From the IMG/VR virus record IMGVR_UViG_3300009499_000148, positions 1 through 64,000 of that record: 64,000 nt of DNA. One strand, given 5' to 3'. Below are positions 6,782 through 59,936 of the stretch, one piece after another. Positions within the stretch are counted from its first letter, which is position 1, and every line of letters begins with the position of its first letter. Source of the DNA: a virus. The notes beneath the pieces are model-generated. The model had not been told where the DNA came from. It saw only the letters and a list, made by a program, of their open reading frames with translations, and searched no databases. The position numbers were made by a program, and so were the translations under genes.

Positions 6782-6818
6782 GCAACATCCTATATCATCA
6801 ATCTTATAACACAATACA

Positions 6819-40137: not shown

Positions 40138-40140
40138 TTC

Positions 40141-43941: not shown

Positions 43942-44154
43942 TCAAATCTCATTAGCACACGTGCGTGTGCATTCATCGCAACAGTTGCAGACATCATCAT
44001 CACAACCGTTGACGTCGCTATCATATGGGCATGGATGACGTTTAGTGCCAGCGTTTATGCCGCACTTTTTGCATTTTCTTTTTCGTTGTCTCTTAACGTC
44101 AATCGGCTTCACACTCTCATCACTGCTTTCATCATGTTTCATATGATTGTCCAT
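43942..44154 (-). CDS. Small Cys-rich zinc-binding protein
   Basis: CKKC..HPCPY..CNCCDECTRTC. Confidence 0.6.
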   Translation of the reverse strand: MDNHMKHDESSDESVKPIDVKRQRKRKCKKCGINAGTKRHPCPYDSDVNGCDDDVCNCCDECTRTCANEI

Positions 44155-44822
44155 CCACCGTCAATGATTATCTCTGCACCCGTCATGTATCTGTTATCTT
44201 GTGAAAGAAGCATTCTCATGGCTGGCTCAAGGTCCTTCAGTGAAGCCATCCTACCCATCGGTGCATACGAGCCATATAGGTTCTTAAACTCAATCGGTTG
44301 GTCATGTGAGACACCGCCAGGAACGATGCAGTTGACGCGTATGTCGGGTGCAAGATGCACAGCAAGGATTCGTGTCAGATGTGCAACGCCCGCTTTCGAC
44401 ACAGAGTAACCAACGTGCTTATGAGCGCCGTCATACATGTCTGGTCGAGCAGAGACGATGCCAGTCGATGCACCAAAATTAACGATGTTGCCGTGCTTGT
44501 TGTTTCGTGCATACTCACGACAGACTGAAAAGAGCGACGTGAGATTGACCTCAAGACAGTCTCTAAAGCTCTGCAAAGGAAGGTCGAACAGCGTTCCTCT
44601 CTTCTCACCTGAAGCAACGTGGTCGTTGAATGCGAACAGATTCACTATCGATGATGCCTGGCCCTGCGGAGATGCAAAGAACTCCCTGACATACGCTTCA
44701 TCAGTGAGGTCATGGCCGAGCGCGACATCAAGCTCGATGACCTCCTCAAGCAACGTATTCATTATGAACTGCACCATGTGCTGTCCAATCAATCCCCTAG
44801 AACCTGCAACTATCACAGTCAT
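44139..44822 (-). CDS. Short-chain dehydrogenase/reductase
   Basis: VAGSRGLIG, IVNFGAS, YSVSKAG, IRVNCIVPGGV and TGAEIIIDGGW. Confidence 0.9.
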   Translation of the reverse strand: MTVIVAGSRGLIGQHMVQFIMNTLLEEVIELDVALGHDLTDEAYVREFFASPQGQASSIVNLFAFNDHVASGEKRGTLFDLPLQSFRDCLEVNLTSLFSVCREYARNNKHGNIVNFGASTGIVSARPDMYDGAHKHVGYSVSKAGVAHLTRILAVHLAPDIRVNCIVPGGVSHDQPIEFKNLYGSYAPMGRMASLKDLEPAMRMLLSQDNRYMTGAEIIIDGGWTII

Positions 44823-45697
44823 TTTTCGACCTCAATAATTGAAAAATTTTTCGACCTTACATCACTTTCACGTATTCTAACTAATTTTAGACAATGCTCA
44901 GCAAACCATTGATTTTGTTCTTTATCAGTTTGAATTTTTTTCAAAATTACTTTATCTCTAGCAGAACTTGAATTAAGAAGTTGTTCTATCGATCTATCAA
45001 GACCATGCCAATAATCACCATCAACTTGAATATAAAGCTTTTTAGACTTAACATAAAAATCGATCGGCCACTTATGAACAAACACTTGATATTCAACATC
45101 ATCAATTCCAAACAGTTTTTGAAGAAAAATATCTACATGACATTCAGGCTGTGTTTTTTGTCCATATGATGAATTTCGCTTCATCGTTTCATGTTGTCTA
45201 GCCCTAATCGACGGATCATTTTCAATGGCTTTTTTCATAGAAAAGCTTTTTTTCATTTTGACTTCAGGTCTATTTTGAGATTCTGTAAGAGAGATTATCC
45301 GTTTTTCTCTAACAACTGGATCTATCCAACTAATTTTTAGCTTTTCACTTTTTTTGAATCGAACTTCAGGTCTATTTTGTGCTTCTTTATTTGAGATTCG
45401 TTGTTTTTCTTTGACTGTCGGATTAGCTTGTATCTTTTTTGATATCTCAGAACGTATTTTTCTTACACCAGGTTGAGACCAGATTTCTTTTTGAGCTTTA
45501 CTCTTTTTTTCTCGAATATCATCACGATTAGCAAACTCTTTCATTGCTAGTTTATGATTTTTTTTAGCTTCTACTGTTTGACAACCATTTCTTTGTGAAA
45601 GATCTCTAATCTCTTTCCATTTTTCATCATGATGCTTACGATGAATACGCATTCCTTTGTTTGATTGAAAATTTCGAAGACAAATATCACAAATCAT
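44819..45697 (-). CDS. Putative homing endonuclease: C2H2 finger, 17-aa helical repeats and Vsr/DUF559-like nuclease
   Basis: CDIC..F....GMRIHRKHH, about 8 repeats of PEV+EK+S type, and TQPE..WPIDFY..IQVDGDYWHG..D..QN. Very AT-rich. Confidence 0.82.
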   Translation of the reverse strand: MICDICLRNFQSNKGMRIHRKHHDEKWKEIRDLSQRNGCQTVEAKKNHKLAMKEFANRDDIREKKSKAQKEIWSQPGVRKIRSEISKKIQANPTVKEKQRISNKEAQNRPEVRFKKSEKLKISWIDPVVREKRIISLTESQNRPEVKMKKSFSMKKAIENDPSIRARQHETMKRNSSYGQKTQPECHVDIFLQKLFGIDDVEYQVFVHKWPIDFYVKSKKLYIQVDGDYWHGLDRSIEQLLNSSSARDKVILKKIQTDKEQNQWFAEHCLKLVRIRESDVRSKNFSIIEVEK

Positions 45698-46656
45698 CTT
45701 TTATTCCATTCTTTAACTTGACTAATAAAATCAATGCCAACATTTCGTGACCACTGTTGACATATTTGCTGTGTAATCAGCCCCATTGGTTCTGAGTTAA
45801 TACAACCCTTTATCAATTGCCCGTTGAGACGATTACATGGAATAAGATTAGTGAACGTCCCAGTGAAAAATGCCTCATCTGCATTTAGAACATCATAAGG
45901 TTCAAAATTACATTCAATAACCTCGAGACCAAGCACCGGTGCTATGACATCGATGATGTACGTCATGCTACATCCACGAAGCACATTCCTGAGTTCTGGA
46001 ACGATAATCTTACGGTCTTTAATGATGACAAAGTTCGCACCTGTGCCCTCTGCGATAAGACCCTGTTCATCAAGCAGTAGCGCCTGCGCGTCCTTACCGT
46101 AGTGATTGGCCTGGATGTTCGCCAACATTAGATGAGCCCTTGAACGAGATTTCACCTTAGGGTCGAGGTATTGAGACGATATCTGTCTCTGCGGCACGAT
46201 GACAGCATTCGCACCAGTCTCATAGAAATGAGCCATCGTCTTTGCTGTCTTACTGAGAGGCCATGCGTTGATAATCCACGTCGGCTGGCCCCATTCCTCA
46301 CCCTCATCAAGCTCAAATACCTCACGATACACAGGTAGTGGGCCACGAGAGACATTAATCATGAAACGATACTCGTCATCTCTATAATGGGATTCATTCC
46401 TAACCATGACATCATGGATGATATCACGGAGCTCATTTCGCGTCTTATTGATGGGAATTGAAAAGCTTCTCATCGATGAAAAAAGTCTATCGATGTGCTC
46501 GTCGAGTAAGAAATGACGATGAACAAACGTTCGATGCATCTCAAAACAACCATCACCAAACATGAATTGTGAATCAGTCCATGAGATGGAAAGCTCCTCA
46601 TCAGGAAGCCAACGACCATTCTTATAACCGATGCGGCCCGTAGAAATTGGTCTCAT
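45694..46656 (-). CDS. PLP-dependent aminotransferase class IV (BCAT/D-aminotransferase fold)
   Basis: FMFGDGCFE, HIDRL, KVKSRSR, EGTGANF, LRGCS and ADEAFFTGT. Confidence 0.9.
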   Translation of the reverse strand: MRPISTGRIGYKNGRWLPDEELSISWTDSQFMFGDGCFEMHRTFVHRHFLLDEHIDRLFSSMRSFSIPINKTRNELRDIIHDVMVRNESHYRDDEYRFMINVSRGPLPVYREVFELDEGEEWGQPTWIINAWPLSKTAKTMAHFYETGANAVIVPQRQISSQYLDPKVKSRSRAHLMLANIQANHYGKDAQALLLDEQGLIAEGTGANFVIIKDRKIIVPELRNVLRGCSMTYIIDVIAPVLGLEVIECNFEPYDVLNADEAFFTGTFTNLIPCNRLNGQLIKGCINSEPMGLITQQICQQWSRNVGIDFISQVKEWNKR

Positions 46657-46690
46657 TGGATGACCCTCAACAAGATACAGTTAAAAAAAA

Positions 46691-47410
46691 TCATCCCTCA
46701 ATCTGCCTCTTCTTCCAATCATCATTACGATACTGATTGATGACCGTCAGCCCAGGATGTTTCATGAAGAAATCGACAATCTCAGAACGAGTGCATCCAG
46801 AGCCAAGGATGCGATGCACTGTCGAAATGACCCAATAATCTTGCTCATAATCAAGCGTAAGACGGATGTCCTTCTCAATCGGTTCAACATAAAATCCAAG
46901 CATCGCCTGCTTCAGACCCGGCAACAGATGCTTCCACACCATCTCAGTGCTGATGTTTGGATTAACGTTGTCAAGCGACGATACTATCGACGACGTCTTG
47001 AATGCCCAGCCATGTGAGCCAAGATACGCATCCATGTTAGGAGCAACGACGTCTAGGCCCCTTGCTTCAAGCTGGTCCATCGACTGCTGACACAACCCAC
47101 CATCAAAGAATGGGTCGTCAGCATCGACTGTGATGAACTGTTTCACACCAAAACGCTCACATGCCTGTGCCCACCTCAACATCTTATTCTGAGCAGGGCC
47201 CCTGTGGATACGTTCTCCGACGATTGGACGCAACATCTTCACAAGAGCATCATCAGAAGAGTCATCTGTCGTCGCGATGATGGGAGAAAATCCGAACCCG
47301 ATGCATCTATGAACGACATGCTGTATCACAGTCGTCGTGCCAAGAGGCAGGAGACACTTTCCAGGAAGCCGCGTCGATGCAGTTCGAACAGAGATGATTG
47401 CATCAATCAT
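46691..47410 (-). CDS. CMP-ulosonate synthetase / cytidylyltransferase (SpsF/PseF/KdsB-like)
   Basis: VRTASTRLPGKCL, ATT..SDD, VDADDPF and IRLTLDYEQD. Confidence 0.88.
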   Translation of the reverse strand: MIDAIISVRTASTRLPGKCLLPLGTTTVIQHVVHRCIGFGFSPIIATTDDSSDDALVKMLRPIVGERIHRGPAQNKMLRWAQACERFGVKQFITVDADDPFFDGGLCQQSMDQLEARGLDVVAPNMDAYLGSHGWAFKTSSIVSSLDNVNPNISTEMVWKHLLPGLKQAMLGFYVEPIEKDIRLTLDYEQDYWVISTVHRILGSGCTRSEIVDFFMKHPGLTVINQYRNDDWKKRQIEG

Positions 47411-47663
47411 TCCCATGCTCCTTCTCAAGAACACGCATCAGATGCTTGAACGTCGAACGCATGAACGCGGGGGCGGGTGTTGTTGCACCGTCCATCCAAT
47501 GCTTAATCGTCTGTTGCGACACACCCATCTTCTCAGCAAGGTCTGCAAGCTTAAATTGCATCAATGCATATGCATTCACTAACGCTGTCCTACATGCGGG
47601 TGCATCCTCAAAATCAACAGCACGAAGCTCATCCATCAATGCAATGTATTCACTGACATCCAT
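47403..47663 (-). CDS. XRE/Cro-type helix-turn-helix regulator
   Basis: LADLAEKMGVSQQTIKHWMDGATTP. Confidence 0.8.
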   Translation of the reverse strand: MDVSEYIALMDELRAVDFEDAPACRTALVNAYALMQFKLADLAEKMGVSQQTIKHWMDGATTPAPAFMRSTFKHLMRVLEKEHGND

Positions 47664-48592
47664 TATGTGAATAACTGTATCATGAATTGATGAACGTTTT
47701 CACTGGCGACATCGACACGATTCAAATGAGCGCCACGGCACATACCAACGATTGCATCAACGTCTGTTTCAAGCAAACGCGTGTATAGGTCATGCTCAGG
47801 ATGTGAAAATGTGCTCCATGGATGCTTGTCTGGGTGAAGGTCAATGTTTATGTACCTACAACCGGCCTCGATGAGGTCAGTGTATGCAGTCGAACCGAAT
47901 CCGACGACTGCGCGTGATGCCAACGCCAGCTCAATGCCCTCCGCGGGATACCACACATCATCCCACACAACAGTGCAGTCTGACGATGAGACTGCCTGAT
48001 GCTTGCGGCGTTGCTTAACAACGACAGAGAATCCATCGTCTTTGAGCGCCGTGATGACAGCGTTTGCTGATGCAACATCACCCGCATCAGGATAAAAGAT
48101 GAGGATGCGCTTTTCATCGACATCAACCCTTGATGCTCCATCCCAGAATGGAATTGGGTGTGGCGGGTGGAGAAGATTGAGACGAGAGCCACGAGAACGA
48201 ACATGCTCAATCATCCATCGTGTCGGACAGACATACACATCACACAGCGCAGAGACGTCATCGTGGTGCCAATTACAATCGAACCCGTGCTGTATCGATA
48301 CTCTCTTAACGTTGCTACTGAACCTCTCTGCAGGAAACTCAAGCGACACAGCGTAATCAACGACAGACGAAGTATCAAACGGCCTAACCTCTGCCCAGGG
48401 ACAGCGTTCACTGACACGGTCGAGCAGCACCTGAAAGTTCTCGTGTCGTGCGAAACCGTTATACTTCTCACTTCGTCTTGAGACATCGAACGACTGGACG
48501 ACATCTGGCATGACATGATGTAGCACCCTACTGAAGGGTATCATGTAGCGAAGCTCAGTGAGCCCCGTCATGATGAACGATGCGCGCTTCAT
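47663..48592 (-). CDS. Putative GT-B transferase (candidate ulosonic-acid/sialyl-type transferase)
   Basis: SIQHG motif, CDVYVC, VVVKQR and VVGFGST. Next to the CMP synthetase. Start at the ATGA overlap, 48592. Confidence 0.5.
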   Translation of the reverse strand: MKRASFIMTGLTELRYMIPFSRVLHHVMPDVVQSFDVSRRSEKYNGFARHENFQVLLDRVSERCPWAEVRPFDTSSVVDYAVSLEFPAERFSSNVKRVSIQHGFDCNWHHDDVSALCDVYVCPTRWMIEHVRSRGSRLNLLHPPHPIPFWDGASRVDVDEKRILIFYPDAGDVASANAVITALKDDGFSVVVKQRRKHQAVSSSDCTVVWDDVWYPAEGIELALASRAVVGFGSTAYTDLIEAGCRYINIDLHPDKHPWSTFSHPEHDLYTRLLETDVDAIVGMCRGAHLNRVDVASENVHQFMIQLFT

Positions 48593-49227
48593 CTCTTTGG
48601 ATGGCCCAATGTGATTATGTAGAGCTGTGGAGATGCTGGCCAAAGCATCTTGAACCTGATGCGTTCGTAATCGTAATCAACGAGCGCTGGCACCTCATCA
48701 CAGATGATTTTATCAATGTCGGGTGCATCAGAATACCCGAAGCGCCCAGCGATGCTCTTCACAAACGCCTGGACCTCGGGTTGCATCACAAACTCATGAC
48801 GCCATAGGCATGAATGAAGCGTGTTACGTTTATCATACGCCCACTCATGCTCACCGTTCCTGACCCAACCGACCTTGAACGCATCGAAGCGCCAATGGTC
48901 GCCGAGCCCAAAATCAAGCATGATGCGCCCACCAACATTGAGATGAGCATCACACCTATCGATGAAATCACGTGGATTACGTGAAAAATACGGACACCTC
49001 GTCGAGACTATCAGGTCGTACTTTCGCTTGAGGCTCCACTCTGAGTTGATGTCCCACGAACCTGCTCCACCCAGACGAATGTCATAGAAGTCTCTGACAG
49101 AGCCTGGCACAGACGCTGTGAAAGCGTTCTCTCCATCGAACCCCAAGAACGCAGTTGCATCAGACATGACGCCCTCAAGTATCTGTCGATACTCTGCAAA
49201 AATGTATGGGTCAGACTTACCCATCAC
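48589..49227 (-). CDS. SAM-dependent methyltransferase-like protein
   Basis: AFLG, WDIN and YDLIVSTRCPYF..P..F..HLNVGG follow the class I MTase layout with a degenerate motif I. Confidence 0.6.
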   Translation of the reverse strand: MMGKSDPYIFAEYRQILEGVMSDATAFLGFDGENAFTASVPGSVRDFYDIRLGGAGSWDINSEWSLKRKYDLIVSTRCPYFSRNPRDFIDRCDAHLNVGGRIMLDFGLGDHWRFDAFKVGWVRNGEHEWAYDKRNTLHSCLWRHEFVMQPEVQAFVKSIAGRFGYSDAPDIDKIICDEVPALVDYDYERIRFKMLWPASPQLYIITLGHPKR

Positions 49228-49946
49228 ATGCTACCTGACATGAGACCGTCGATAAAACTGAACTCATACTCACCGACATGCTCATGAAGGAATGCAATCA
49301 GCTCTGTCGTCATCTCACTAGAAAGGTAGTTGCTGTCCCATTCACATGCATGATACATGACCTCGAGTGCATCATCACGCATGACCAATGGCTTCTGCGG
49401 AGGAGCACAGTGATACATCACATGTCTCAAAGATGCATAGGCACCGTCATACGTCTTCATCGCATAATCATCTGGGCTCAATGCAAACAACGTAAAGCCC
49501 CTATCGTGGAATGCACGCATCGCATCAGGGCTCATACGCCATGCAGGAGGCCTGATGATGGGCTTGAATGCATCGATGAGGCCGGCCTTGGTGACACCTT
49601 CGAACATCCCATCGATGACACACAATGCATCGTCGTAGCTCAGGTGCTGTAATTCATCATTATTTGACCTGCCCGGTATCCCATGATGAAGACCATGATA
49701 TGCAAGCTCATAGTTATTCTTGTCTAGACCACGCAACACATCACAGAAGTCGGGATGCTCATGAAGCCAAAGGGGTTCTGCTGTCGCCGTGTGCCCCACT
49801 GTTCTCCAGTATGCTATCGGGACGAACAGCGTGAACTTTACATCAGGAAATTCCTTGATGATGCGCTCACACTGCCGAAGCACACGTATTGATGACATCG
49901 GGTGTGGAGAAACATCGTCTATTGATATGTTCAGAGGTGTTGTCAT
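49224..49946 (-). CDS. Polysaccharide deacetylase family (DUF2334/CE4-like)
   Basis: ISIDDVSP, FTLFVP, ELAYHGLHH, IRPPAW and MYH. Confidence 0.82.
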   Translation of the reverse strand: MTTPLNISIDDVSPHPMSSIRVLRQCERIIKEFPDVKFTLFVPIAYWRTVGHTATAEPLWLHEHPDFCDVLRGLDKNNYELAYHGLHHGIPGRSNNDELQHLSYDDALCVIDGMFEGVTKAGLIDAFKPIIRPPAWRMSPDAMRAFHDRGFTLFALSPDDYAMKTYDGAYASLRHVMYHCAPPQKPLVMRDDALEVMYHACEWDSNYLSSEMTTELIAFLHEHVGEYEFSFIDGLMSGSM

Positions 49947-50809
49947 TTTTTGGGTCTTCCAAACGTCCACCCCAATTCAAGATACTTGTCGACTTCATCT
50001 ACTTTGACATGCTTATATCCAGACATCTCTGGATTCGACATTATCTTTCGACCTGAAAGACTTTCAGTCATTTTCTTTTTATTTTTAGGATTTGAGAATT
50101 GGCGCTTAGTTGCTATACGTTGCTTTTCTTTCGTTTCTGGATTTGACATCGCTAACTTTATTGCATCACTTCGACGTTTTTTAACGTCAGGCCTTGCATC
50201 AGTAACTTTTCTACGAAGTTTTCGATCGGCATCAGTCCACATTTTTCGAAGACCTTTGCTGCGATTTTCTTTTGCTTTTGGCGTCGACAAGCTTTCTTTA
50301 ACAGCTTTTGAATGACGCTCCTTTACGTCTGGTTTATTTAAAGCATTTTTTATCGCTACATTACGCTTTTCACGATTTTCAATACTAGCATTTGCCCATA
50401 CTGCTTTGCTAGCAGCTGATTGTCTAGCCTTTACTTCAGGTAATGCTAACGTTTCTTTCATTGAAAGGCTTAGTCGTAGTAATGCTTCTTCACTCAAAGA
50501 CGAGCCTCCAGCTAGTTTATTATAACCGTACCTTGAATCATTCGTTTTCCATAGTGCTATATGTTCAATTTCTCGTTTATCAAGCTCTTCTCTTGATGAA
50601 CATTCACAAACTAACTGCCACTTGAACCCGTTAAAGCCGTATTTCTTTAGAGCATTATCTAAATGAAGATTATGACCTTTCTTGCTATATCTCTTAGAGA
50701 GATATTTCAATAAATCAACTACTGCAACTCGATTTCTTGTTTGTCCAACATAACGTTTTTGATTTACAATGTTCGTTGCACAATAAATCACTCCATAAAC
50801 ATTAGACAT
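49943..50809 (-). CDS. GIY-YIG homing endonuclease with 17-aa helical repeats
   Basis: GVIYCATNIVNQKRYVGQT, ALKKYG, REIEHI and GYNKLAGG. Repeats PEVKARQS, PDVKERHS, PDVKKRRS and PETKEKQR. C-terminal YLELGWTFGR. Confidence 0.88.
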   Translation of the reverse strand: MSNVYGVIYCATNIVNQKRYVGQTRNRVAVVDLLKYLSKRYSKKGHNLHLDNALKKYGFNGFKWQLVCECSSREELDKREIEHIALWKTNDSRYGYNKLAGGSSLSEEALLRLSLSMKETLALPEVKARQSAASKAVWANASIENREKRNVAIKNALNKPDVKERHSKAVKESLSTPKAKENRSKGLRKMWTDADRKLRRKVTDARPDVKKRRSDAIKLAMSNPETKEKQRIATKRQFSNPKNKKKMTESLSGRKIMSNPEMSGYKHVKVDEVDKYLELGWTFGRPKK

Positions 50810-51755
50810 ACTTTTCAATTAACTCCACTAATGATTGACCAGCGCTTTTTCTAATATTATAAACAGGAAAATTTCCAGCATTGACACGATTTGCTAGTGT
50901 TGATAATGCTGTCTCGAACGACTCATTGAATGATTCTCCACAATTTCTGACATACTCTGGGATGCTTCCTCCATTCATATGATAAAGGATGGGAAGGCCA
51001 CAAGCCATCGCCTCTAGAACGTGGTTGGCGCCTGCCTCTTCCTCAGACGCTGTCACATACACATCATGCATCGGAAGAGACCTCGCAAGCTCATCGACGT
51101 CTAACACACCAGATGATGTGAATGTTGCCGTATCGGGTGCACGTCCGTAGAACGTGAACGTGTGCCCATTGTTCTTACACCACGCATCGAGCTCATTGTA
51201 GAACGCGAAGCCCTTCTTCGGGTTCATCGACCAATGATGCGTCACGAACCTGATGTTCTTCTGAGGAATTGGACGACTCACACGTCTATGTGCAAAGAAC
51301 GCTGGATTGGGTGAATTCCAAATGACAGCATAGTCATTCATCATCTTTCCTAGCTTGAAAAGACTGTCATTGACCATCGTGGAGCACCACTCACTTGGAA
51401 ATATCACGAAGTCAGACACGGGTGCAGTTCGAATGACGAGGTTTCTCAACTCTGGTTTCCCATGTGTTCCAATGTCTCCGACGCGCTGCACGATGAACGG
51501 TCGCTGTGATGCATTCGGGAAGATTGCCATGATTGCATCGTGTGAAAGCTCATCACTCGTTGCACCCTGTCGTGGGTCCATGCAGAAAATGACATCGACA
51601 CGTGCATCATCACGGAATGCATCTGATAATGAAAAGATGACATCATGACCAGCTGCACGTGCCTCATTGATGAATGACTGGAGGATGCGATTACCTCCTC
51701 CCCACGGGCCAGTGACCGGCTTGCGATTGCAGTATATCGTTAGTCTTGTTGTCAT
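50802..51755 (-). CDS. Glycosyltransferase, GT4
   Basis: GPWGGGN, HWSMNPKKG and YVTASEEEAGANHVLEAMACGLP. Confidence 0.9.
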   Translation of the reverse strand: MTTRLTIYCNRKPVTGPWGGGNRILQSFINEARAAGHDVIFSLSDAFRDDARVDVIFCMDPRQGATSDELSHDAIMAIFPNASQRPFIVQRVGDIGTHGKPELRNLVIRTAPVSDFVIFPSEWCSTMVNDSLFKLGKMMNDYAVIWNSPNPAFFAHRRVSRPIPQKNIRFVTHHWSMNPKKGFAFYNELDAWCKNNGHTFTFYGRAPDTATFTSSGVLDVDELARSLPMHDVYVTASEEEAGANHVLEAMACGLPILYHMNGGSIPEYVRNCGESFNESFETALSTLANRVNAGNFPVYNIRKSAGQSLVELIEKYV

Positions 51756-52849
51756 GATTGTGCTCGTTTTAATGCAGTGATGATTTTCTGACGTGCTAAA
51801 TCAACATCATCGTACGACCATACAATAATAACATTATATCCCATTTTTTCAAGCTCTAAAACCCTTCTTCTATCTACATCCCACTTTTCTGATGCAGAGT
51901 ACCCGAATCCTTTGACGATATCATCTGGCTTAAAGCGTAAAGGAGTTGCATGAACATGGTCGCCATAAAATTCAACAATGACTTTTTTTTCTTCATTGAG
52001 CTCATCGACGATTTTGCTTTTAACATGTTGCTCTGGTACAAACCCTAGCTCGTCCATTCCGATTAAGCTTCGCATTTTTTGATGAAGCTTTGAGAGACGA
52101 CATCCTGAACGGGACGTCTTTAAAAAGGCCTCAAGCTTTTCTGGATTATCTGCAAAATACTGTTTCATTTTGGCAGATATCTTCGCACGCTTTTCTGGTT
52201 TAGAGTTCGCTACCCTAGTCGCATCAGCATGATGTTTCTTTTTTTCGACATCAGAGTATGCTGCATTCACTGATGCTACTCTTTTTTCTCTAACATCAGG
52301 GCGATTTTGCGCTTCTTTTTGTGCATTGGAGCGCTTCTCTTTCATCTCTGGCGTTGCCATCATTTCTATCATTTTTTTATGATAGTCTTCATTTAACCAT
52401 AACAACTTAATTCTATTGCCGACTTTTTCTCGTCTAGTCGGGTCGTCGATATACACCTGTTTTTGTGCATCACTTCGTCGTTTTTTTACATCTGGACGAG
52501 CATTAGCTTCATCAATTGTGCGACGAAACTCATCAGAATTGTAGTACGCCTGTCGAGAAGCTCTCTTCTCAGGATTAGCATGTTGTTTTATGGCTGATAA
52601 GCTACGTTGCTTTCTAACCTCTGGCTGTGATGCATACGTTTTTGTAGCAATTCGTCTACGTTCTCTTGATGCTGGGTCGTGGTTTTTAATATGAATCGCT
52701 AGACCGTTGCTCGTCTTGAACAGCCTATCACAGATAGGGCACTTAACATCGATGTTCTGCATTGCATGCACATGCTTCATGTGAATGCGGAGCCCCTTTA
52801 AAGAAGAAAACTCTCTATTACATTTTTCACAGCACAGATTGGAGGACAT
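51752..52849 (-). CDS. Putative homing endonuclease: two C2H2 fingers, about 10 helical repeats and Vsr/DUF559-like nuclease
   Basis: CEKC..F..LRIHMKHVH and CPIC..F..LAIHIKNH. VDEL..IVEFYGDHVH..D..R..GYNVIIVW. SD GAGG before ATG 52849. Confidence 0.82.
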   Translation of the reverse strand: MSSNLCCEKCNREFSSLKGLRIHMKHVHAMQNIDVKCPICDRLFKTSNGLAIHIKNHDPASRERRRIATKTYASQPEVRKQRSLSAIKQHANPEKRASRQAYYNSDEFRRTIDEANARPDVKKRRSDAQKQVYIDDPTRREKVGNRIKLLWLNEDYHKKMIEMMATPEMKEKRSNAQKEAQNRPDVREKRVASVNAAYSDVEKKKHHADATRVANSKPEKRAKISAKMKQYFADNPEKLEAFLKTSRSGCRLSKLHQKMRSLIGMDELGFVPEQHVKSKIVDELNEEKKVIVEFYGDHVHATPLRFKPDDIVKGFGYSASEKWDVDRRRVLELEKMGYNVIIVWSYDDVDLARQKIITALKRAQS

Positions 52850-53726
52850 ATTCGTACCTCTCTGCGACGTATCCGATGTCGATGTTAGTGTCAAATCTGC
52901 CCTGTCTTACAAGAGAAAAGTCCATTTTCGGTGGGTTGTACAACTCACATGGTTTAAAGTCCCACTCATCTTCTAGAATTATTGTAGAGTCTAAACCAGC
53001 AATCTCTTCTGTGCCACCTGTGGATGAACAAATGATATGACAACCAGCGGCGCGCGCATCAACAACAATGTTCGGGCAATGGTCGATATACGCGCAATGG
53101 ATGAACGTGTCTGTCGCTCTCAACAGTGATATAAGCGCATCTCGCTCTAAATCTCCAGCATAGAACACACGCGTGTCTGCGATTCTAACGTCTGGGTCCT
53201 TACCCGCGATTATTAGAACGTCTTTCGGGCCTGAGTGCTCCATGAAATACCTGATATTCTCTCCAAGACGCTTATGCGGTCGCCATGCAGACGCGCACGT
53301 CCATACTTTCTCAACATCATGGAGCTCAGGAACGTGAAGGGCGTCGCATGACTGTATGGCTTCAACGTCGGTACCGTTGTGAATCACATGCATGTTCATG
53401 CGTGCTCCGAAGTAATTCTCAACCAAACGCCTATCAAACTCTGACTGCACAATCACGCCCTCAACCCTCTTATACGTATCCCGTATCGGTCTGTTGAGAA
53501 GCTGCCAATCCTGCGCACTGTTGAACCATATGCCATCGAGGCGTTGCACTATTGGAAGGCCCTCAAGACGTTGCGTCGCCTGGATGAACGAGAGCTGTAC
53601 ATCTGGTGACTCATGCTTCTCAACAACCGTGTGCCCTCTCATTGATAGAGCAGTCGCTATCTTGAGACCGAATCCATTCGGACCGCTTCTAGATTGAAGC
53701 TGCACATTGTCAAGCATGATACGCAT
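52827..53726 (-). CDS. Glycosyltransferase, GT4
   Basis: SGPNGF, QRLDG, VIHNG, WRPHKRL and DHCPNIVVDARAAG. TGATG overlap at 53726. Confidence 0.88.
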   Translation of the reverse strand: MRIMLDNVQLQSRSGPNGFGLKIATALSMRGHTVVEKHESPDVQLSFIQATQRLEGLPIVQRLDGIWFNSAQDWQLLNRPIRDTYKRVEGVIVQSEFDRRLVENYFGARMNMHVIHNGTDVEAIQSCDALHVPELHDVEKVWTCASAWRPHKRLGENIRYFMEHSGPKDVLIIAGKDPDVRIADTRVFYAGDLERDALISLLRATDTFIHCAYIDHCPNIVVDARAAGCHIICSSTGGTEEIAGLDSTIILEDEWDFKPCELYNPPKMDFSLVRQGRFDTNIDIGYVAERYEYVLQSVL

Positions 53727-54445
53727 CACTTTAAGAACCCTCTTGCTCTGACCAAATTGACTGTCGCAAGCTGTTTTCTCTCTGCCCAATCCCTATCATC
53801 AACAGAACAACTCCTGATGCGATACAGATAACACACATCTGGGATGTATTTTCTTACCTTCGCAACCGTCAATAGTGGCAACATGAGAGATTGATCGTAT
53901 CCCCTTTGAAACCACACACTCTTGTTATCCTTGAAGTTATCATCAGATATAGAGTTCAACAGACGAGCGTCGAACGTTCTGAGATGTGATGAGCACCACG
54001 GCCACTGATATGGATTAACGTTCTGTGGCATCTCCCTTGAGATGTTTATGTCATTGATGTCCCACCGGTGTGCTGTCCATGCCACGGTATCGGGCTGTGA
54101 GTGTGCATCCTTCACCAACCTGACGGTCTCAGTGTTGCAGAGCTGGTCATCGCCGTCAATGATTGCGATTATGTTTCTGTCTGCATCATTGTTGGCGATG
54201 ATTGTACGTGATGCATGAATGATGTTATAAAGAGCATACATCCTGCTTGACCCAAGAACGACAGCAATCCTACCATCAGACGCCATGGCCTCCTTTAGAG
54301 CATCTCTCGTGTCGTCAGTCGAACAATCGTCTATGAATAACGCAGACCAATCTGCGTCAGATTGCGCCTTCAACGATTGCACCAGGTCGTGGATGTTCGG
54401 AGCAGCATTATAGCATGGAATGATGAACGTTAACATATGTTTCAT
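53726..54445 (-). CDS. Glycosyltransferase, GT2 (GT-A)
   Basis: FIIPCYN, IDDCSTD and IIDGDD (DxD). SHLRTF. Confidence 0.9.
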   Translation of the reverse strand: MKHMLTFIIPCYNAAPNIHDLVQSLKAQSDADWSALFIDDCSTDDTRDALKEAMASDGRIAVVLGSSRMYALYNIIHASRTIIANNDADRNIIAIIDGDDQLCNTETVRLVKDAHSQPDTVAWTAHRWDINDINISREMPQNVNPYQWPWCSSHLRTFDARLLNSISDDNFKDNKSVWFQRGYDQSLMLPLLTVAKVRKYIPDVCYLYRIRSCSVDDRDWAERKQLATVNLVRARGFLK

Positions 54446-54449
54446 GATA

Positions 54450-54731
54450 TCATACATCATCTGATGTGAATTGAACAGGGTGTGCCGTGTCATCATTCGG
54501 TCCATAAAACACCCACGAAGTTCTCCACGCACGGGGGTCAGAAAACTCAACAATGTTACCGTCGGCTATTAAAAATACAAACCGTCTTACGTGCTTTTGA
54601 AGCACTCCTGCGTTGGTGTTGACATCGACCAATAACAGAATAGACAATTCATAATTGCTACGTGAATCCATGAATCCCGTGTAGACGAACAACGTTCCAA
54701 CTTCAAACACTGATGTGCTCATTCTTTGCAT
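54450..54731 (-). CDS. Small paralogue array member 8 (PGTLF family)
   Basis: FEVGTLFVY..ILLLVD..FVFL..DPRAWRTSW. Confidence 0.7.
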   Translation of the reverse strand: MQRMSTSVFEVGTLFVYTGFMDSRSNYELSILLLVDVNTNAGVLQKHVRRFVFLIADGNIVEFSDPRAWRTSWVFYGPNDDTAHPVQFTSDDV

Positions 54732-55021
54732 CTCTTCATCACATAAGACTTATAATCGTATAACGTCATCTCATCATGCCCAGGCTCATGAACAGTCCAG
54801 TTGATGATGTTGTACAGCCACGCAACCGGTTCTGGCAAATCATCATGATAATCTGGTTCTCCACCGCCATTTGACCAATCAATGACATCTAAAAACCGAT
54901 GATGACCATCTATTTCACCTACATAGAGACGATACATTGTTCTCATGCCAAGCCAACGTTCTGCTGACATGCTATCATCAACAATCATAATGAACAGCGT
55001 TCCTGGCACATACTCATTCAT
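54719..55021 (-). CDS. Small paralogue array member 7
   Basis: YVPGTLFIM..RLYVG..HRFL..EPVAW...NW. Confidence 0.7.
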   Translation of the reverse strand: MNEYVPGTLFIMIVDDSMSAERWLGMRTMYRLYVGEIDGHHRFLDVIDWSNGGGEPDYHDDLPEPVAWLYNIINWTVHEPGHDEMTLYDYKSYVMKRCKE

Positions 55022-55287
55022 ACATCACTGTTTATGACAAAAAGACTGGTACATTCACCGTTTAACGGACTGACAAGCCTCCAGTTCTTCGCGTTCCAAC
55101 TACGTGGGTTGTCAAGCTCAAAAACATCACCAAAAGAAGACAGAAAAAACATAGCGTTATCATTAACACTGACGAGAATAAATCTCTGCTTACACTTAGC
55201 AGTACATGAGCAGTAAAATAATGTTCCTGGAATGAATTGCTCTGCATCATCTAGAAATAAGTTTTTAAAGTTTTTCATTTGACTCAA
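55018..55287 (-). CDS. Small paralogue array member 6
   Basis: FIPGTLFYC..FILVS..MFFL..NPRSWNAKNW. Confidence 0.7.
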   Translation of the reverse strand: MSQMKNFKNLFLDDAEQFIPGTLFYCSCTAKCKQRFILVSVNDNAMFFLSSFGDVFELDNPRSWNAKNWRLVSPLNGECTSLFVINSDV

Positions 55288-55543
55288 CTGGACCCAAGAA
55301 TGTCGCTACTCCATCTGGAGAGACGATAAGCCACCCATTTGACCACATACCCACCCACATGTGTGGATTTACGACTGTTTCAAACATGACTGCACCGTTG
55401 TCATGTTTGCTATGTGAATGACTTAAAAAACGATACCACATTAAATTATCAGATTTAATTTCAAGGCTAACGAATAGACGAACCTCAACCTCCCATAAAT
55501 TCTGCTTTATTAACAGACAACCGGGATAGATGTTATTGCTCAT
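55265..55543 (-). CDS. Small paralogue array member 5
   Basis: IYPGCLLIK..RLFVS..YRFL..NPHMW...GW. Confidence 0.7.
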   Translation of the reverse strand: MSNNIYPGCLLIKQNLWEVEVRLFVSLEIKSDNLMWYRFLSHSHSKHDNGAVMFETVVNPHMWVGMWSNGWLIVSPDGVATFLGPVESNEKL

Positions 55544-55552
55544 ACCATCGCT

Positions 55553-55822
55553 CTATTTCGAAAACACCACAAGTTCATCTGAACATGATGAAAGCACATA
55601 CCATATGCCGGGCCACCAGCGAGGATGAATGTAATCATGCAGGTCGCATGTCGTGGCACCTGAGTCATAAACGAACGTTCTTAAAAAGAGATAACGTCCA
55701 TCAGACAGACTCGAAACAAAGAGAGCAGTGATATGCGATGCATATTGATGCGTCATATCGTCCATTTTTCTAATCAACAGCATACCTGGAGTAAGCGTCT
55801 GTATCATAGCATCAGTGACCAT
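55553..55822 (-). CDS. Small paralogue array member 4
   Basis: LTPGMLLIR..ALFVS..YLFL..HPRWWPGIW. Confidence 0.7.
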   Translation of the reverse strand: MVTDAMIQTLTPGMLLIRKMDDMTHQYASHITALFVSSLSDGRYLFLRTFVYDSGATTCDLHDYIHPRWWPGIWYVLSSCSDELVVFSK

Positions 55823-56138
55823 CTACGTCTCCCAATATCAGTTCATTGGTTGAACCGAGAAAAACGACCTTCGTTTCAGGTGCAAACACAGGATTCCATA
55901 ACGACACAACCTCGATTGATTCAACGTCGTGTGCACCGCTGGGTCTAACGCAGACATCCACCTCTAAGAACACGTACACATCACCAAATGGATGCTCATT
56001 GTCACGAATGCGATTCACCAACAATCGATACACTGTGCCTTGTCTCACATTCCGTTTGTTCCAAATCAGCAACGTTCCCAGAGGGATATTCACGTTTGAC
56101 AGAAACACATGTTCTCTCTTAAAAGCGGACATAATCAT
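55812..56138 (-). CDS. Small paralogue array member 3
   Basis: IPLGTLLIW..RLLVN..YVFL..WNPVF. Confidence 0.7.
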   Translation of the reverse strand: MIMSAFKREHVFLSNVNIPLGTLLIWNKRNVRQGTVYRLLVNRIRDNEHPFGDVYVFLEVDVCVRPSGAHDVESIEVVSLWNPVFAPETKVVFLGSTNELILGDVDGH

Positions 56139-56379
56139 TCAACCTAACAGGGTATGACTCCCCAACATTGATGAATGAAACATTTTTTTTGGATATCCAA
56201 AGATGAGGAGCATCGTAGCATGCTAAATAAGAAACGCCGTTAAACGTCTCTAAAAACTCATACTTGTTTTCAACAAACAAATCACCCATGACAACTCGTC
56301 GAATCAACAACAGAATCATGTTTGGTATGTCTTCAGATTGAGGTTCTACAAAAAACAGCGTCCCTGGCAACCACTCCAT
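56119..56379 (-). CDS. Small paralogue array member 2
   Basis: WLPGTLFFV..LLLIR..YEFL..APHLW. Confidence 0.7.
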   Translation of the reverse strand: MEWLPGTLFFVEPQSEDIPNMILLLIRRVVMGDLFVENKYEFLETFNGVSYLACYDAPHLWISKKNVSFINVGESYPVRLNDYVRF

Positions 56380-56387
56380 ACTGATGA

Positions 56388-56681
56388 TTATAGCACGACT
56401 TTAACATCCATTACAACGCTGTAGTATGCATCGTTGTACTCAGTCAAAGGCCTCTCTACATCATCCGGCTGTATGTAGCACCATGAACGTGAGTGCCAGT
56501 CTATCGGTGACGACTCAAATAGCTCACCATCGCCATCGAGAAACACGTATGACGAAGAGCTGCCAGGTGATTGTCGTATCAGAAGCAACGCTGCATGGCG
56601 GCGAGCCAACACAGAACGGAAATCTTTCCTAAAGAACAGCGTCCCTGGCTTAAAAAACTCATTCACAGACGTCTGCATCAA
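56388..56681 (-). CDS. Small paralogue array member 1
   Basis: FKPGTLFFR..LLLIR..YVFL..SPIDWHSRSW. Confidence 0.7.
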   Translation of the reverse strand: MMQTSVNEFFKPGTLFFRKDFRSVLARRHAALLLIRQSPGSSSSYVFLDGDGELFESSPIDWHSRSWCYIQPDDVERPLTEYNDAYYSVVMDVKVVL

Positions 56682-57897
56682 TTGAGAAGATGTTATCAGA
56701 AAGCAACCTAATCGCTCCTGTCGGTGATGACATCAGCTCTTCTGTCTGAAATGGTTTGAGCGTCTCTCTAACGGCGGCGTCCCTACGGGCCTTATACGCC
56801 TCGTGGTCAAGCGAACGAAGCGCGGCGTTCCCTGGGTCCTTGCACACTCGACATATCGGCGGCACAGACAGCGGGTTGGGAAGCCTCATTGAGTTGAACA
56901 CAGGATGATGCCACGCCCAAAACAGGTCATCATTTGTCATCTTGTCAATGTCTGCTATCATCGGGCTTATCCTGTTGCAGACAGCTAGCTCAGACTGTCC
57001 CTTTCGAAACGGGTCTGACTTGAACAGAAAGCTGCTGAACGGCTCATGGCATCCACCAGCATACGGCTTCTCATCAGTTGGGAATGCAGTCTTTCCACTC
57101 ACAACATCAAGCGCTGGGATGATTGACTGCTGCTGGTGCTTCTGCTCAACGATGAACTTCGGCTCTTTCGGGTCAAGCTGTAATCCAACACGAGCTGCCT
57201 CATCATAGACTGCTCTTAGAGTGTCATTCGTTAGCTTGACATCATCGTACAATGAGACATCTTCATCAAAGTCATTTGGAGACTTATAATAAAGATAGAC
57301 GGTCATCATATCAACACCAAGAGACTTCGCCATCCTCACTGCCGCGACTGCATCTACCTGATTCAAACGTCCAATCCCAAAGTTGATGTTCGTCCTCGTC
57401 GGCACACCCTTTCTTGCGGAGCAAAAATACCTGATGTTCTCAATCACACGCTCGAACCTGTTTTTATTGCCCGGGCCCATCACCCTAGCATAGACCTCAG
57501 GTGTCGCTGCATGCAATGAGAACGTCAATGAGACGGGTGCATGCGCAATGAGAAAATCAGACCTCTCTTTCGTTAGAAGAAGACCGTTCGTCGATAGGTC
57601 TATCACGATGTTCTTGTTGATGTCCCTTATCGTCCTGATGATGTCGTCGAACGTTGGCGCATATAGGGGCTCACCCAACCCAGTCCGACCACCGATATTC
57701 ACGACACGTGCAGAGCGCAACATCGACGTGAACGCTAGAACGTTCTCTACAGTCATGATGTTGCGTTGGTAGCTCTTTCCTATCTTATGAAGCTTCTCAT
57801 CGACGCCGTTGATTTCACAGAAACCACACCTATAATTGCATTGTGCGATTATGGGAAGAGAAATGAAGTCAGGTCTCATCTGTGTGTTCATAGTCAC
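56659..57897 (-). CDS. Radical SAM enzyme with SPASM/twitch-like C-terminus
   Basis: CNYRCGFC, GEP, STNG and FSLHAATPEVY. C-terminal CHEPF..VC..ICRVC. Confidence 0.9.
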   Translation of the reverse strand: MTMNTQMRPDFISLPIIAQCNYRCGFCEINGVDEKLHKIGKSYQRNIMTVENVLAFTSMLRSARVVNIGGRTGLGEPLYAPTFDDIIRTIRDINKNIVIDLSTNGLLLTKERSDFLIAHAPVSLTFSLHAATPEVYARVMGPGNKNRFERVIENIRYFCSARKGVPTRTNINFGIGRLNQVDAVAAVRMAKSLGVDMMTVYLYYKSPNDFDEDVSLYDDVKLTNDTLRAVYDEAARVGLQLDPKEPKFIVEQKHQQQSIIPALDVVSGKTAFPTDEKPYAGGCHEPFSSFLFKSDPFRKGQSELAVCNRISPMIADIDKMTNDDLFWAWHHPVFNSMRLPNPLSVPPICRVCKDPGNAALRSLDHEAYKARRDAAVRETLKPFQTEELMSSPTGAIRLLSDNIFSIDADVCE

Positions 57898-58283
57898 CGA
57901 CTTAGCTTAAATCGCTTCTTTAAAGCATCTCTAAGCATATTAATTTTATTTAAACGAGCTTCATGTTCTGGTGCTAGTTGATAATTACAGTGCTCACGAT
58001 GCATACCTTCAAAATCTTTAAGACTAAGTCCAACAGCTTCTTTACGAAGGGTTTCAAGATCTTTATCGTTGTGTGTATCTAAGCCTCTAATCTTAGATTG
58101 CTGGTTAGCAAAATTTTGATTAACAATATTATGATTTATACCACGTGGAGGTTTAAAGTTATCAATCCACTCTTCAAAAAACGCACAAATTTGAACAAGC
58201 GCTTGTCTTTTAGCTTCTTTTTTACCAACGTTAAATATGAAGCTAAAAATATCAAAAATATTAAAATGAAAAATGCTAAACAT
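57894..58283 (-). CDS. AT-rich inserted hypothetical protein
   Basis: 129 aa with a Phe/Ile-rich N-terminus, SD AGGA and very AT-rich DNA. Confidence 0.55.
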   Translation of the reverse strand: MFSIFHFNIFDIFSFIFNVGKKEAKRQALVQICAFFEEWIDNFKPPRGINHNIVNQNFANQQSKIRGLDTHNDKDLETLRKEAVGLSLKDFEGMHREHCNYQLAPEHEARLNKINMLRDALKKRFKLSR

Positions 58284-58320
58284 ATGTTCCTAAATTTCAA
58301 AAAATTCTAACTTCAATATA

Positions 58321-59055
58321 TCACCAATCATTCAAGAATGCACTTGCATCGAACTTAGGATGCTTCACAAGCACCTGTCCGTAGTCAATCTGCTCATCAG
58401 GGATGCGTCTATCGTCAAAGAAAATCCTGCGGTCAGAGCGAATGAGTTCTTTGTCTTCGTCAAGCCCGTCGATGAACCTAGCAACCTGCATGTCTGGGCT
58501 CTTTGATGATGGGTCGTAGTCGTCGAAAAGTACAAACTTATTATACCTATCCTTGAGACATTCCCAGTCGTACTTTACACCCTCGAATGTGTGAAGCCCA
58601 TCGATGTAAATCAAATCGACGTTCTCCTTGATGTTCAGGACTGCATCATTGACTGTTCCCTTTATGAGATTGAGCTTCGAAAGCCACTCCCTTGGAAACG
58701 CCTGACCCAGGAGCTTGAGGTGGTTCTCATCGAAGTTCGGGTCGACGCTATACACCCTGCCGTCGTCAAAGCCCATGTCTGTCATTGCCTTTGCAGCGCA
58801 GAGGGATGCATAGCCACGACCGAACCCTATCTCCAACATCGTTCGAATCTCATAGCGCTTGATAAGGGCATAGATGAGGAGACCACGCTCAAAATTCGGT
58901 CTAAAAAAAGCTCCTGCAGAGCGATAAAGCGGGTCTGATGGATGACGAGACTTTTTAGCAGTCAGCTCACCAATCTGGTCAAAGTCTCCAAGTGAAAGTG
59001 AAGAAACTGGATAATGTAGCTCTTCTAGCTTCTGTCTAATGTCTGTGTGTTTCAT
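58321..59055 (-). CDS. Class I SAM methyltransferase (Methyltransf_24-like, sugar O-methyltransferase type)
   Basis: LEIGFGRGYAS, YSVD, DLIYIDGLHTFEGVKYD and LFDDY. Confidence 0.88.
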   Translation of the reverse strand: MKHTDIRQKLEELHYPVSSLSLGDFDQIGELTAKKSRHPSDPLYRSAGAFFRPNFERGLLIYALIKRYEIRTMLEIGFGRGYASLCAAKAMTDMGFDDGRVYSVDPNFDENHLKLLGQAFPREWLSKLNLIKGTVNDAVLNIKENVDLIYIDGLHTFEGVKYDWECLKDRYNKFVLFDDYDPSSKSPDMQVARFIDGLDEDKELIRSDRRIFFDDRRIPDEQIDYGQVLVKHPKFDASAFLNDW

Positions 59056-59936
59056 GGTAGGAATTCCTTTAATTTAGAAAAATCACCGCGCTTAACTTCT
59101 TTATCTGTTATTCTAACCAGCTTTAAATTATTGGTTTTAAACCAAGCATTTTGTTCACTGTCAGTGTGGCGTCTGCTATAGATGTTAATGTCTCGTTTTG
59201 TTTTTAACAAAGCTAATTCTTCGACTGTTCTGTCAAGGCCATGCCAATATACACCATCAAGCTGGATATACGCATCAACACTCTTGACATAAAAGTCAAT
59301 AGGCCATCTATGAATGAATTTCTGATAAATGACATTGTCAATGCCAAATGTTGATTGTAGAAATGTCTCAAGCTTGGCTTCAGGTTTTGTTTTTTTTCCA
59401 TATGTCCCATTTCGCTTCATCGTTTCATGACGTCTTTGATGAGCTTCTGGTGTCCAAGCTTCTTTAATTGACTTACTTTTTTTCTCTTTAATTTCTGGTC
59501 TATTTTGTGCTTCTTTTTGAATTTCACTTGCTTTTGCTTTATACTCAGGAGTACTATGTGAACGTTTAATAGACACACTTCGTTTTTGCACAACATCATG
59601 ACGGTTTTGAGCTATTTTTTGAGCTTTAGAACGTTTTTCTTTGACATCTGGTTTCGATAATGATTTTGTAATAGCAGCTATTGTTCGCTCCCTAATCTCT
59701 TGATTTTGCCAATTTTCTTTCGTCTTACTGACATTCATCGAATGAACTTTTCCGCCAGGTTTGTTTGCATTTTTTCGACAATCATCATTACAAAATGTAT
59801 ATTTCTGTTTAAGAAAATCAAGATTATGTGGTCTTATAAATGATAACGAGCATTGATCGCAAATAAAACGCATAACAGTTTTCTTTTTATTCTTTCTCGG
59901 ATGTGAATACTCAATCGTCTCAAACTTTATGAACAT
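59052..59936 (-). CDS. Putative homing endonuclease: Zn finger, 17-aa repeats and Vsr/DUF559-like nuclease (paralogue of 44819-45697)
   Basis: CDQC..FCNDDC. RHETMKRNGTYGKKTKPE versus QHETMKRNSSYGQKTQPE in the paralogue. WPIDFYVKS..IQLDGVYWHGLDR. Confidence 0.82.
   Translation of the reverse strand: MFIKFETIEYSHPRKNKKKTVMRFICDQCSLSFIRPHNLDFLKQKYTFCNDDCRKNANKPGGKVHSMNVSKTKENWQNQEIRERTIAAITKSLSKPDVKEKRSKAQKIAQNRHDVVQKRSVSIKRSHSTPEYKAKASEIQKEAQNRPEIKEKKSKSIKEAWTPEAHQRRHETMKRNGTYGKKTKPEAKLETFLQSTFGIDNVIYQKFIHRWPIDFYVKSVDAYIQLDGVYWHGLDRTVEELALLKTKRDINIYSRRHTDSEQNAWFKTNNLKLVRITDKEVKRGDFSKLKEFLP

Follow-up and report, generated by a model that had tools for sequence, protein, structure and literature searches.

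Four genes of a viral DNA stretch, referred to here as genes A, B, C and D, encode putative nucleases that carry tandem arrays of a short helical repeat, mostly of 17 amino acids (aa). Compared by profile, this repeat is an offshoot of the DNA-binding motif NUMOD3 and a previously unnamed variant of it. The genes are located in the window, that is, the whole stretch of 64,000 nucleotides analyzed here, which corresponds to bases 1-64000 of the IMG/VR virus record IMGVR_UViG_3300009499_000148 (106,059 bases, estimated to be 29% complete). The array probably serves as a groove-tracking arm with a degenerate, unit-specific preference, in free-standing homing endonucleases with NUMOD3-derived units. 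A description of the repeat was not found in the literature; Sitbon and Pietrokovski 2003 (the original description of NUMODs) and Van Roey 2001 (the structure of I-TevI) are outside the coverage of this search and may already include units of the type found in MobD of phage T4.

All four open reading frames (ORFs) were found on the minus strand at the coordinates of Table 1. The periodicity was assessed by self-similarity against 300 shuffles. At a period of 17 residues the z-values are 6.2 for gene A, 5.5 for gene B and 4.9 for gene D, and at 34 residues they are 7.5 for gene A and 6.3 for gene D. The signal of gene C is weaker, with z=3.1 at 17 and z=3.8 at 30 (17+13), because this array contains units of 13 aa. 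Segmentation by hand gives 8, 9, 12 and 7 units in genes A, B, C and D, with variant units of 13, 16, 18 and 19 aa, and a stricter position-specific scoring matrix counts 7, 7, 8 and 5. The tandem, mostly 17-aa repeats reported for the four genes in the initial annotation are therefore real. The hidden Markov model (HMM) of the unit that it proposed, built from the four genes, matches only those four when it is run over the 106-kb contig in its 756 stop-to-stop frames; after them the best E-value is 2.6. Tandem repeats at the DNA level were looked for over the four arrays and none was found.

The units are strongly basic, with a net charge of +2.25 each. The AlphaFold2 model of gene A, computed from a 98-row alignment, has a mean pLDDT (the per-residue confidence score) of 91, rising to 97-98 over the array, and contains one helix per unit, starting at the proline. 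This predicted structure shows a helix-kink-helix array in which the helix is broken at each proline. A single-sequence AlphaFold model of gene A (pLDDT 46) was discarded. A match of the repeat in the PDB to the designed protein 4D2, and Pfam matches of its relatives to GerD, NPM1-C, STI1 and GBP_repeat, were set aside as chance likeness to a charged, proline-capped helix. The ESM Atlas features DUF7487 (0.85) and NUMOD3 (0.84) are below 0.9 and are leads only.

It is important to compare this repeat with NUMOD3. The Pfam NUMOD3 profile (PF07460, gathering cut-off 20.4 bits) gives no row for the four window proteins at E<=1, nor for MobD of phages T4 and VR26 at E<=10. Of 149 relatives, 11 have a NUMOD3 row at E<=0.01, and several of these 11 carry a canonical leader unit. 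The comparison set consisted of 282 NUMOD3-type units from 79 proteins related to the canonical endonuclease encoded in the same genome at window position 5906 (Table 1). The modal spacing is 17 in both types of unit (81 cases for NUMOD3), and the column frequencies agree at positions 2, 4, 6, 8, 9, 10 and 12; conservation of the NUMOD3 set at its seeded columns is partly built in, because the seed pattern fixed H-S/T, E, K/R, I/M/L and S/R. The two profiles are aligned in register by hhalign at 86% (E 4.8e-6), while 20 column-shuffled controls reach at most 34%; a single-unit NUMOD3 profile gives only 43%. In addition, 11 of the 152 proteins of the repeat family described below start with a NUMOD3-type leader, nearly always in register with the array (12 matches are listed, one of them without a leader). 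When Pfam-called NUMOD3 units are scored on the core of the new repeat they obtain +7.7 bits (I-TevI), +13.3 bits (I-TevII) and +11.3 bits (window 5906 protein). On the repeat tail, canonical NUMOD3 units score -14 to -18 bits.

The core E2-x-K/R4-x-K/R6-x-S8-x-A10-x-K12 is thus common to the new repeat and to NUMOD3, the minor-groove helix of I-TevI, I-BmoI and I-HmuI. Both occur in tandem and hybrid arrays, and both are found with GIY-YIG and HNH nucleases. The new repeat differs in its helical linker, its longer arrays and its escape from the Pfam profile. The linker reads G-K-x-H-S/T-E in NUMOD3 and E/A-A-W/Q-A/N-R/D-P in the repeat. Position 13 is Gly in 86% of NUMOD3 units and Glu or Ala in the repeat, position 16 is His in 42% and Ala, Asn or Ser in the repeat, and position 7, which is Ile, Met or Leu in 96% of NUMOD3 units, has 3.3 bits of variety in the repeat. 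In I-TevI, Ser191 bonds a phosphate and His182 reads bases (PMC2853131). Ser191 corresponds in position to the conserved S8 of the repeat, and His182 to position 16, where the base-reading His has been lost. The register of the profiles, the hybrid arrays and the family entropy given below bear out the earlier proposal of a NUMOD3-like array with a fixed framework and variable positions. One stretch of the T4 I-TevI linker (aa 107-123; L001:195-932, minus strand), separate from the known NUMOD3 helix, also scores as a unit of the new repeat, at 9.2 bits against a shuffled 95th percentile of 1.5.

A profile of the four arrays was searched against 1.84 billion cluster representatives (clusters at 50% identity). 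Matches were obtained to 3,135 clusters at E<=1e-3 and to 659 at E<=1e-10. The family statistics rest on the best 150 of the 3,135, and are biased to a period of 17 because these are the most regular arrays. The family set consists of 152 proteins, after P0036, which is 96% identical to gene D, was dropped. The spacing between units is exactly 17 aa in 938 cases, 30 in 98, 34 in 19 and 23 in one, in a set collected with a 17-periodic profile, and the arrays range from 3 to 16 units. The flanking domains fall into clusters of 91 N-terminal GIY-YIG-type, 23 C-terminal Vsr/DUF559/TnsA-type, 9 C-terminal HNH, 6 N-terminal HNH-type and 4 AP2 members, the rest being small groups and singletons. The repeat is therefore shared by unrelated nuclease families, as had been suspected from the window alone: fusions to GIY-YIG, HNH, Vsr-like and TnsA-like nucleases all occur. 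Fusions to a SET domain (P0010) and to AP2 domains (P0060, P0091, P0098) were also seen, and suggest, as far as domain composition can tell, roles beyond nucleases.

The sharing is seen from the other side as well. In two other loci, L017 and L018, the nuclease clade of genes A and D sits behind a different type of repeat. The domains encoded there (L017:4494-5387 and L018:436-1488, plus strand) have 52% and 42% identity with the nuclease domain of gene A and lie in replication-gene neighbourhoods. The varied partners of the array, together with this A/D clade behind another repeat, demonstrate module sharing across GIY-YIG, HNH and Vsr-like nucleases. The sharing of NUMODs between nuclease types has already been stated in general (PMC3239194; PMC1564403), and recombination between homing-endonuclease repeats is known for zinc-finger arrays too (PMC10448857). 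Long-term shuffling across nuclease types, as read from these domain combinations, is hence real but already known for NUMODs. The repeat would provide the DNA-binding arm of a very large set of unannotated homing-type nucleases, the 3,135 clusters, which the Pfam NUMOD3 profile overlooks.

A well-known member of the family is MobD of phage T4. A tblastn search with gene A against GenBank phages gave a match, in the repeat region, to MobD of phage VR26. The T4 protein (AAD42592.1) contains three units scoring 23-33 bits, a 13-aa unit and weaker end units, compared with a shuffled 95th percentile near 1-2 bits, and VR26 MobD likewise carries the array. T4 MobD and its orthologues in VR26 and a20 are free-standing HNH endonucleases, in which, unlike genes A-D, an HNH nuclease is located N-terminal to the array. 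The C-terminal region of MobD has been described as presumably DNA-binding (PMC2988022). The repeat would give an anatomy to this uncharacterized C-terminal half, which can be tested in a standard E. coli phage.

The MobD orthologues are also informative about the variable positions. In the family, positions 7, 11 and 15 are the most variable, at about 3.3 bits each, and together with position 3 they form one face of the helix. The initial annotation called for positional variability to be computed; the three most variable positions do lie on one face, but variation is spread over the whole unit. Units within one protein are 38% identical. In two non-overlapping pairs of MobD orthologues, 2 of 32 residues have changed at 3/7/11/15 and 23 of 56 at 5/9/10/13/14/16/17 (Fisher p 4e-4); this p-value is optimistic because the pairs share ancestry, and although the face was set by family entropy before MobD was found, the comparison positions were chosen after the T4/VR26 pair had been inspected by eye. 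Over 25 MobD sequences the minimum number of changes is 3 over 20 sites at 3/7/11/15 and 16 over 15 sites at 5/9/13. Codons of T4 and VR26 differ by 7 synonymous and 2 non-synonymous changes at 3/7/11/15, compared with 1 and 7 at 5/9/13. Homogenization within proteins is 0.03-0.08 at positions 3, 7, 8, 10, 11, 14 and 15 and 0.15-0.22 at 4, 5, 6, 9, 12, 13, 16 and 17. The variation at 3/7/11/15 in the family, with its conservation in MobD, suggests that these residues make unit-specific contacts to the DNA groove. Four changes in one unit of gene C were disregarded, as they come from a frameshifted tail.

The mobility of the genes was considered from related loci. Gene D is absent at the matching junction in two of four (L012 and L013, where the flanking genes abut), and L010 and L011 hold a different short gene. 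Gene B is absent in one of three (L016, where the flanking genes abut), and in L014 and L015 other DNA lies between the flanking homologues. Judged from these junctions, genes B and D are optional, in the manner of free-standing homing endonuclease genes. The GC content of the four genes (31-41%, compared with 40-49% in their neighbours) also speaks for mobility. A locus search of viral contigs with gene D gave no match, and neither did one with the aminotransferase beside gene A; a search of metagenomes with gene A found relatives of its nuclease domain only, and five related phage records (15-71% complete) contain no match to the repeat. One related contig, 111,068 bases long, has two called ORFs in place of gene C (P0270, P0271; 199 and 172 aa). 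The break is inside the array and may be due to decay or to an assembly error.

In the mechanism we propose, the four genes would be homing endonucleases, free-standing and lodged among the glycosylation genes of a jumbo phage. The repeat retains the core residues of the NUMOD3 helix, with the extended G-K-x-H-S/T linker swapped for a helix ending in an N-cap and proline. Because a helix has replaced the extended linker, the 17-aa unit would be a single helix of 14-16 residues with a kink, and the 13-aa units would have about one helical turn fewer. The helices may zig-zag along the DNA groove with about 3-4 base pairs (bp) per unit, a value which simple chord geometry permits (3 or 4 bp per 17-aa unit). 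The basic residues 4, 6 and 12 and S8 would grip the DNA backbone, and the face formed by 3, 7, 11, 14 and 15 would fit the groove with a degenerate, shape-based and neighbour-dependent preference. This would supplement the specificity of the zinc fingers and of the nuclease. Over long times the arrays would lengthen, shorten and pass between nucleases through recombination.

Some of these features can be compared with STPR of Bombyx mori FMBP-1, the nearest structural analogue, whose tandem helices follow the major groove, 4 bp per 23-aa unit, with residues 6, 9, 10, 13, 14, 16 and 17 in contact with DNA and mainly shape readout (PMC4856987). Like the new repeat as modelled, STPR is composed of tandem single helices with short linkers, and a zig-zag course along the groove would be common to both. 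Its units differ in their length and in being 60-80% identical, and it belongs to a eukaryotic transcription factor. When the two are aligned by the N-cap, the STPR contacts would map to repeat positions 4, 7, 8, 11, 12, 14 and 15, on the same helix face. No STPR entry matches repeat profile A1 at E<=10, so the likeness is an analogy only.

A different explanation, which we consider rather unlikely, is that the array acts as a basic clamp blind to sequence and as a molecular ruler, providing affinity and the distance between finger and nuclease, with specificity coming from the nuclease and fingers and the conserved face reflecting helix packing at the kinks. In I-Bth0305I most of the specificity is due to the nuclease dimer, and the N-terminal region, which is of NUMOD2 and not NUMOD3 type, binds largely non-specifically (PMC3239194). 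The NUMOD3 helix of I-TevI makes one phosphate bond, its base-reading His precedes the helix, and the equivalents in I-BmoI tolerate substitution (PMC2853131); the loss of this His for Ala, Asn or Ser in the new repeat points in the same direction. The strongest covariation, between position 15 and positions 3 and 7 of the next unit and between 17 and position 3 of the next unit, is what packing at a kink predicts. Against such a clamp, positions 7 and 11 are mid-helix, mostly polar or mixed, and differ between units, and in MobD they are better conserved than the framework (2 non-synonymous changes in 20 codons versus 7 in 30). Several GIY-YIG members also stop a few residues past the array, which leaves little else for DNA binding. 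It is very improbable that the variable face is a protein-protein surface, for a dimer, a bundle or a partner, with the array mainly a scaffold. The hydrophobic share of positions 3, 7, 11 and 15 is 72%, 35%, 46% and 57%, so that 3 and 15 would suit such an interface, positions 3/7/10/11/14 form an amphipathic stripe, and nucleases of the I-Bth0305I type are dimeric (PMC3239194). However, the unit descends from a DNA-groove helix, is strongly basic and is almost always located beside nucleases or DNA-binding domains, and a self-interface would be expected to favour homogenized residues.

The initial annotation had raised the possibility of a modular DNA-recognition code reminiscent of TALE or PPR repeats. 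A TALE unit is a 34-mer of two helices, almost identical from copy to copy, in which two variable residues correspond to one base; a PPR unit is a 35-mer and likewise has two helices. The new repeat resembles them as a tandem helical repeat with some highly variable positions, and differs in that its units are single helices, 38% identical within a protein, in which most positions vary. What stands of this proposal is a weaker form, unit-specific residues on one helix face; a cipher is unproven. In a true modular cipher a unit would read a fixed step of 3-4 bp by means of 7/11/15 (with 3 and 14), largely independent of its neighbours, so that arrays would be programmable like zinc fingers or TALEs; such a cipher appears quite unlikely. 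It would agree with the variability of 7, 11 and 15 on one face, their resistance to homogenization, the purifying selection on them in MobD, and the mapped STPR contacts. Recurrent unit types exist as well: among 938 tails QNR occurs 103 times and WAD 47 times, and the ten commonest 11/15 pairs account for 37% of the units. However, variation is not confined to two positions as in TALEs. The two most variable positions account for 16% of the summed entropy, and there are 485 different 7/11/15 triplets in the 938 units and 154 different 11/15 pairs. The length of the unit varies from 13 to 19 aa, adjacent units covary and so are not independent, and STPR reads mainly DNA shape (PMC4856987).

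The reading of the array as a groove-tracking arm with degenerate preference must be set against several results as well. With composition matching the homogenization contrast becomes smaller, 0.03-0.08 versus 0.09-0.16, and position 10 is exceptional in combining low homogenization with 9 changes in MobD. The orthologue signal is that of one family, MobD, with about three lineages. Twelve distant pairs, with 42-51% identity and uncertain register, have a slight excess of 0.14-0.22 at 7/11/15 versus -0.02 to 0.08 at 5/9/13, and within-cluster variation in genes A, C and D and in P0018 provides too few changes for a comparison of the face. The groove (major or minor) and the number of bp per unit are suggested by analogy and simple geometry. 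A sequence search of solved structures gave no natural match for the repeat, and fold searches gave none for the repeat part, although they were dominated by the nuclease domain, so that the repeat was hardly tested. An empty site for gene A or C was not found in the related phage loci, where the identity of the flanking genes is only about 45-50%. In Table 1 of PMC2988022 the activity of T4 mobD itself is entered as not determined and its target as unknown.

The possible consequences depend on positions 7, 11 and 15. If they set the preference of each unit, the repeat would amount to a programmable DNA binder of small size, and the switching of targets by these nucleases would be explained; if they do not, it is a routine entry in the NUMOD catalogue. 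It seems to us unlikely that the repeat is a natural, compact and programmable module for reading DNA, in which each 17-aa helix covers 3-4 bp and base preference is set by 7/11/15 (and 3, 14). Such a module would be in use in phage nucleases by the thousand, from no fewer than four catalytic families and with T4 MobD among them, and it could be decoded and re-assembled in the way of zinc fingers. The analysis singles out positions 7, 11 and 15, as compared with 5, 9 and 13, as those to mutate.

The exchange of modules between nucleases had also been proposed from two sequence matches within the window. Long-term sharing across nuclease types holds, as described above, but the two matches do not show a recent exchange in this genome. 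The identity of 12 residues between genes B and C was confirmed, with a DNA match of 46 nucleotides at 78%, and KEAQNRP is present in genes A, C and D. Of the 12 codons in the shared 12-mer 6 are identical, and 4.9 would be expected from codon usage. At least 12 identical residues are shared by 13 of 1,500 random family pairs, so one such match among the six window pairs is only borderline. KEAQNRP is found in 26 of the 152 family proteins. Twelve directed comparisons were made among the four arrays; in 11 of them the arrays resemble one another no more than they resemble composition-matched outside arrays, and the best-unit comparison of D to C reached the top 3%. That genes B and C exchanged the 12-mer recently is rejected on the basis of the codons and of these array comparisons.

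Table 1. Coordinates of the four repeat-carrying genes, their arrays and the NUMOD3 comparison gene in the window
Feature	Position	Strand	Description
Gene A, 292 aa	44819..45697	-	one C2H2-like zinc finger (aa 2-24), repeat array, Vsr/I-Bth0305I-like nuclease (aa ~180-292)
Gene A array, aa 42-178	45164..45574	-	8 units: six of 17 aa, one of 18 aa, one terminal
Gene B, 291 aa from TTG (ATG at codon 4)	49943..50818	-	N-terminal GIY-YIG nuclease (aa 9-89), repeat array, short C-terminal domain
Gene B array, aa 110-260	50039..50491	-	9 units, including one of 13 aa and one of 19 aa
Gene C, 380 aa from TTG	51752..52894	-	C2H2 zinc fingers (aa 21-43 and 51-72), repeat array, DUF559/Vsr-like nuclease
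Gene C array, aa 74-250	52145..52675	-	11 units (three of 13 aa, two of 18 aa) and a degenerate twelfth from aa 251
Gene D, 294 aa	59052..59936	-	weak FCS-like Cys finger (aa 26-55), repeat array, Vsr-like nuclease
Gene D array, aa 62-179	59400..59753	-	7 units: five of 17 aa, one of 16 aa, one terminal
Canonical NUMOD3 GIY-YIG endonuclease (comparison)	5906..6832	-	units 17 apart; no match with the new repeat HMM

The nuclease domains of the four proteins were assigned with different degrees of support. Gene B scores 24.3 bits with Pfam GIY-YIG (PF01541), above the cut-off of 22.6, and matches PHROG 314 with an E-value of 1e-20; its TIGR01453 score is under the cut-off of that model. Its short C-terminal domain is also present in 6 other proteins of the repeat family. 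The Vsr/DUF559 Pfam scores of genes A, C and D are all sub-threshold. In a fold search the modelled C-terminal domain of gene A was superimposed on Vsr with Z 11.6 and a root-mean-square deviation (rmsd) of 3.7 over 114 residues, and on I-Bth0305I with Z 10.6 and rmsd 3.3 over 91 residues. The nuclease residues Glu185, Asp213, Asp226, His231 and Asp258 of gene A are in place. The first four align with the active site of I-Bth0305I (3r3p), while Asp258 corresponds to the last active-site Asp by its invariance in the five-sequence alignment A4 and not by the 3r3p alignment. The nuclease of gene D is 53% identical to that of gene A. By the modelled fold of gene A, the C-terminal domain of genes A and D is of the EDxHD/Vsr-like type with intact catalytic residues. 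In gene C the D, H and D of alignment A4 are kept, the first Glu and the x position are different, and the identity to the gene A domain is 16%; its close relatives are called with a length of 365 aa, the start being the ATG at codon 16.

The EDxHD homing endonuclease I-Bth0305I has the same general arrangement, an N-terminal DNA-binding region followed by a C-terminal nuclease of the Vsr fold, with its catalytic E, D and H aligned with Glu185, Asp213 and His231 of gene A. It differs in having two NUMOD2 motifs and a location in a group I intron (PMC3239194), whereas genes A, C and D are free-standing and combine zinc fingers with the 17-aa array.

The window contains a baseplate gene, PhoH and a long glycosyltransferase/NeuB cluster. 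The four genes are located within this cluster, on the same strand as their neighbours and overlapping them; gene A does so on both sides. Their GC content is 31% (A), 36.5% (B), 41% (C) and 34% (D), and that of the flanking genes 40-49%. The region around gene A (window 39559-48592, minus strand) encodes NeuB, SIS, two short-chain dehydrogenases, a class IV aminotransferase and a cytidylyltransferase-like gene.

Several other features on the minus strand were observed. Two further probable homing-type nucleases, at 2421-3443 and 36325-37296, contain arrays of Cys-rich zinc-finger-like units; the former has a TnsA-like nuclease and the latter a weak NUMOD3 match. A remnant of 118 aa at 4806-5162 has the start of a GIY-YIG motif fused to an I-HmuI NUMOD-like domain, and looks like an endonuclease with an internal deletion. 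A glycosyltransferase is interrupted at 33851-36325 by an intein with a LAGLIDADG domain. Finally, seven tandem ORFs of 86-108 aa at 54719-56681, which gave no Pfam match, have in common the N-terminal motif PG/LG-(T/C/M)-L-(F/L) and look like a small-protein family that has been expanded locally.

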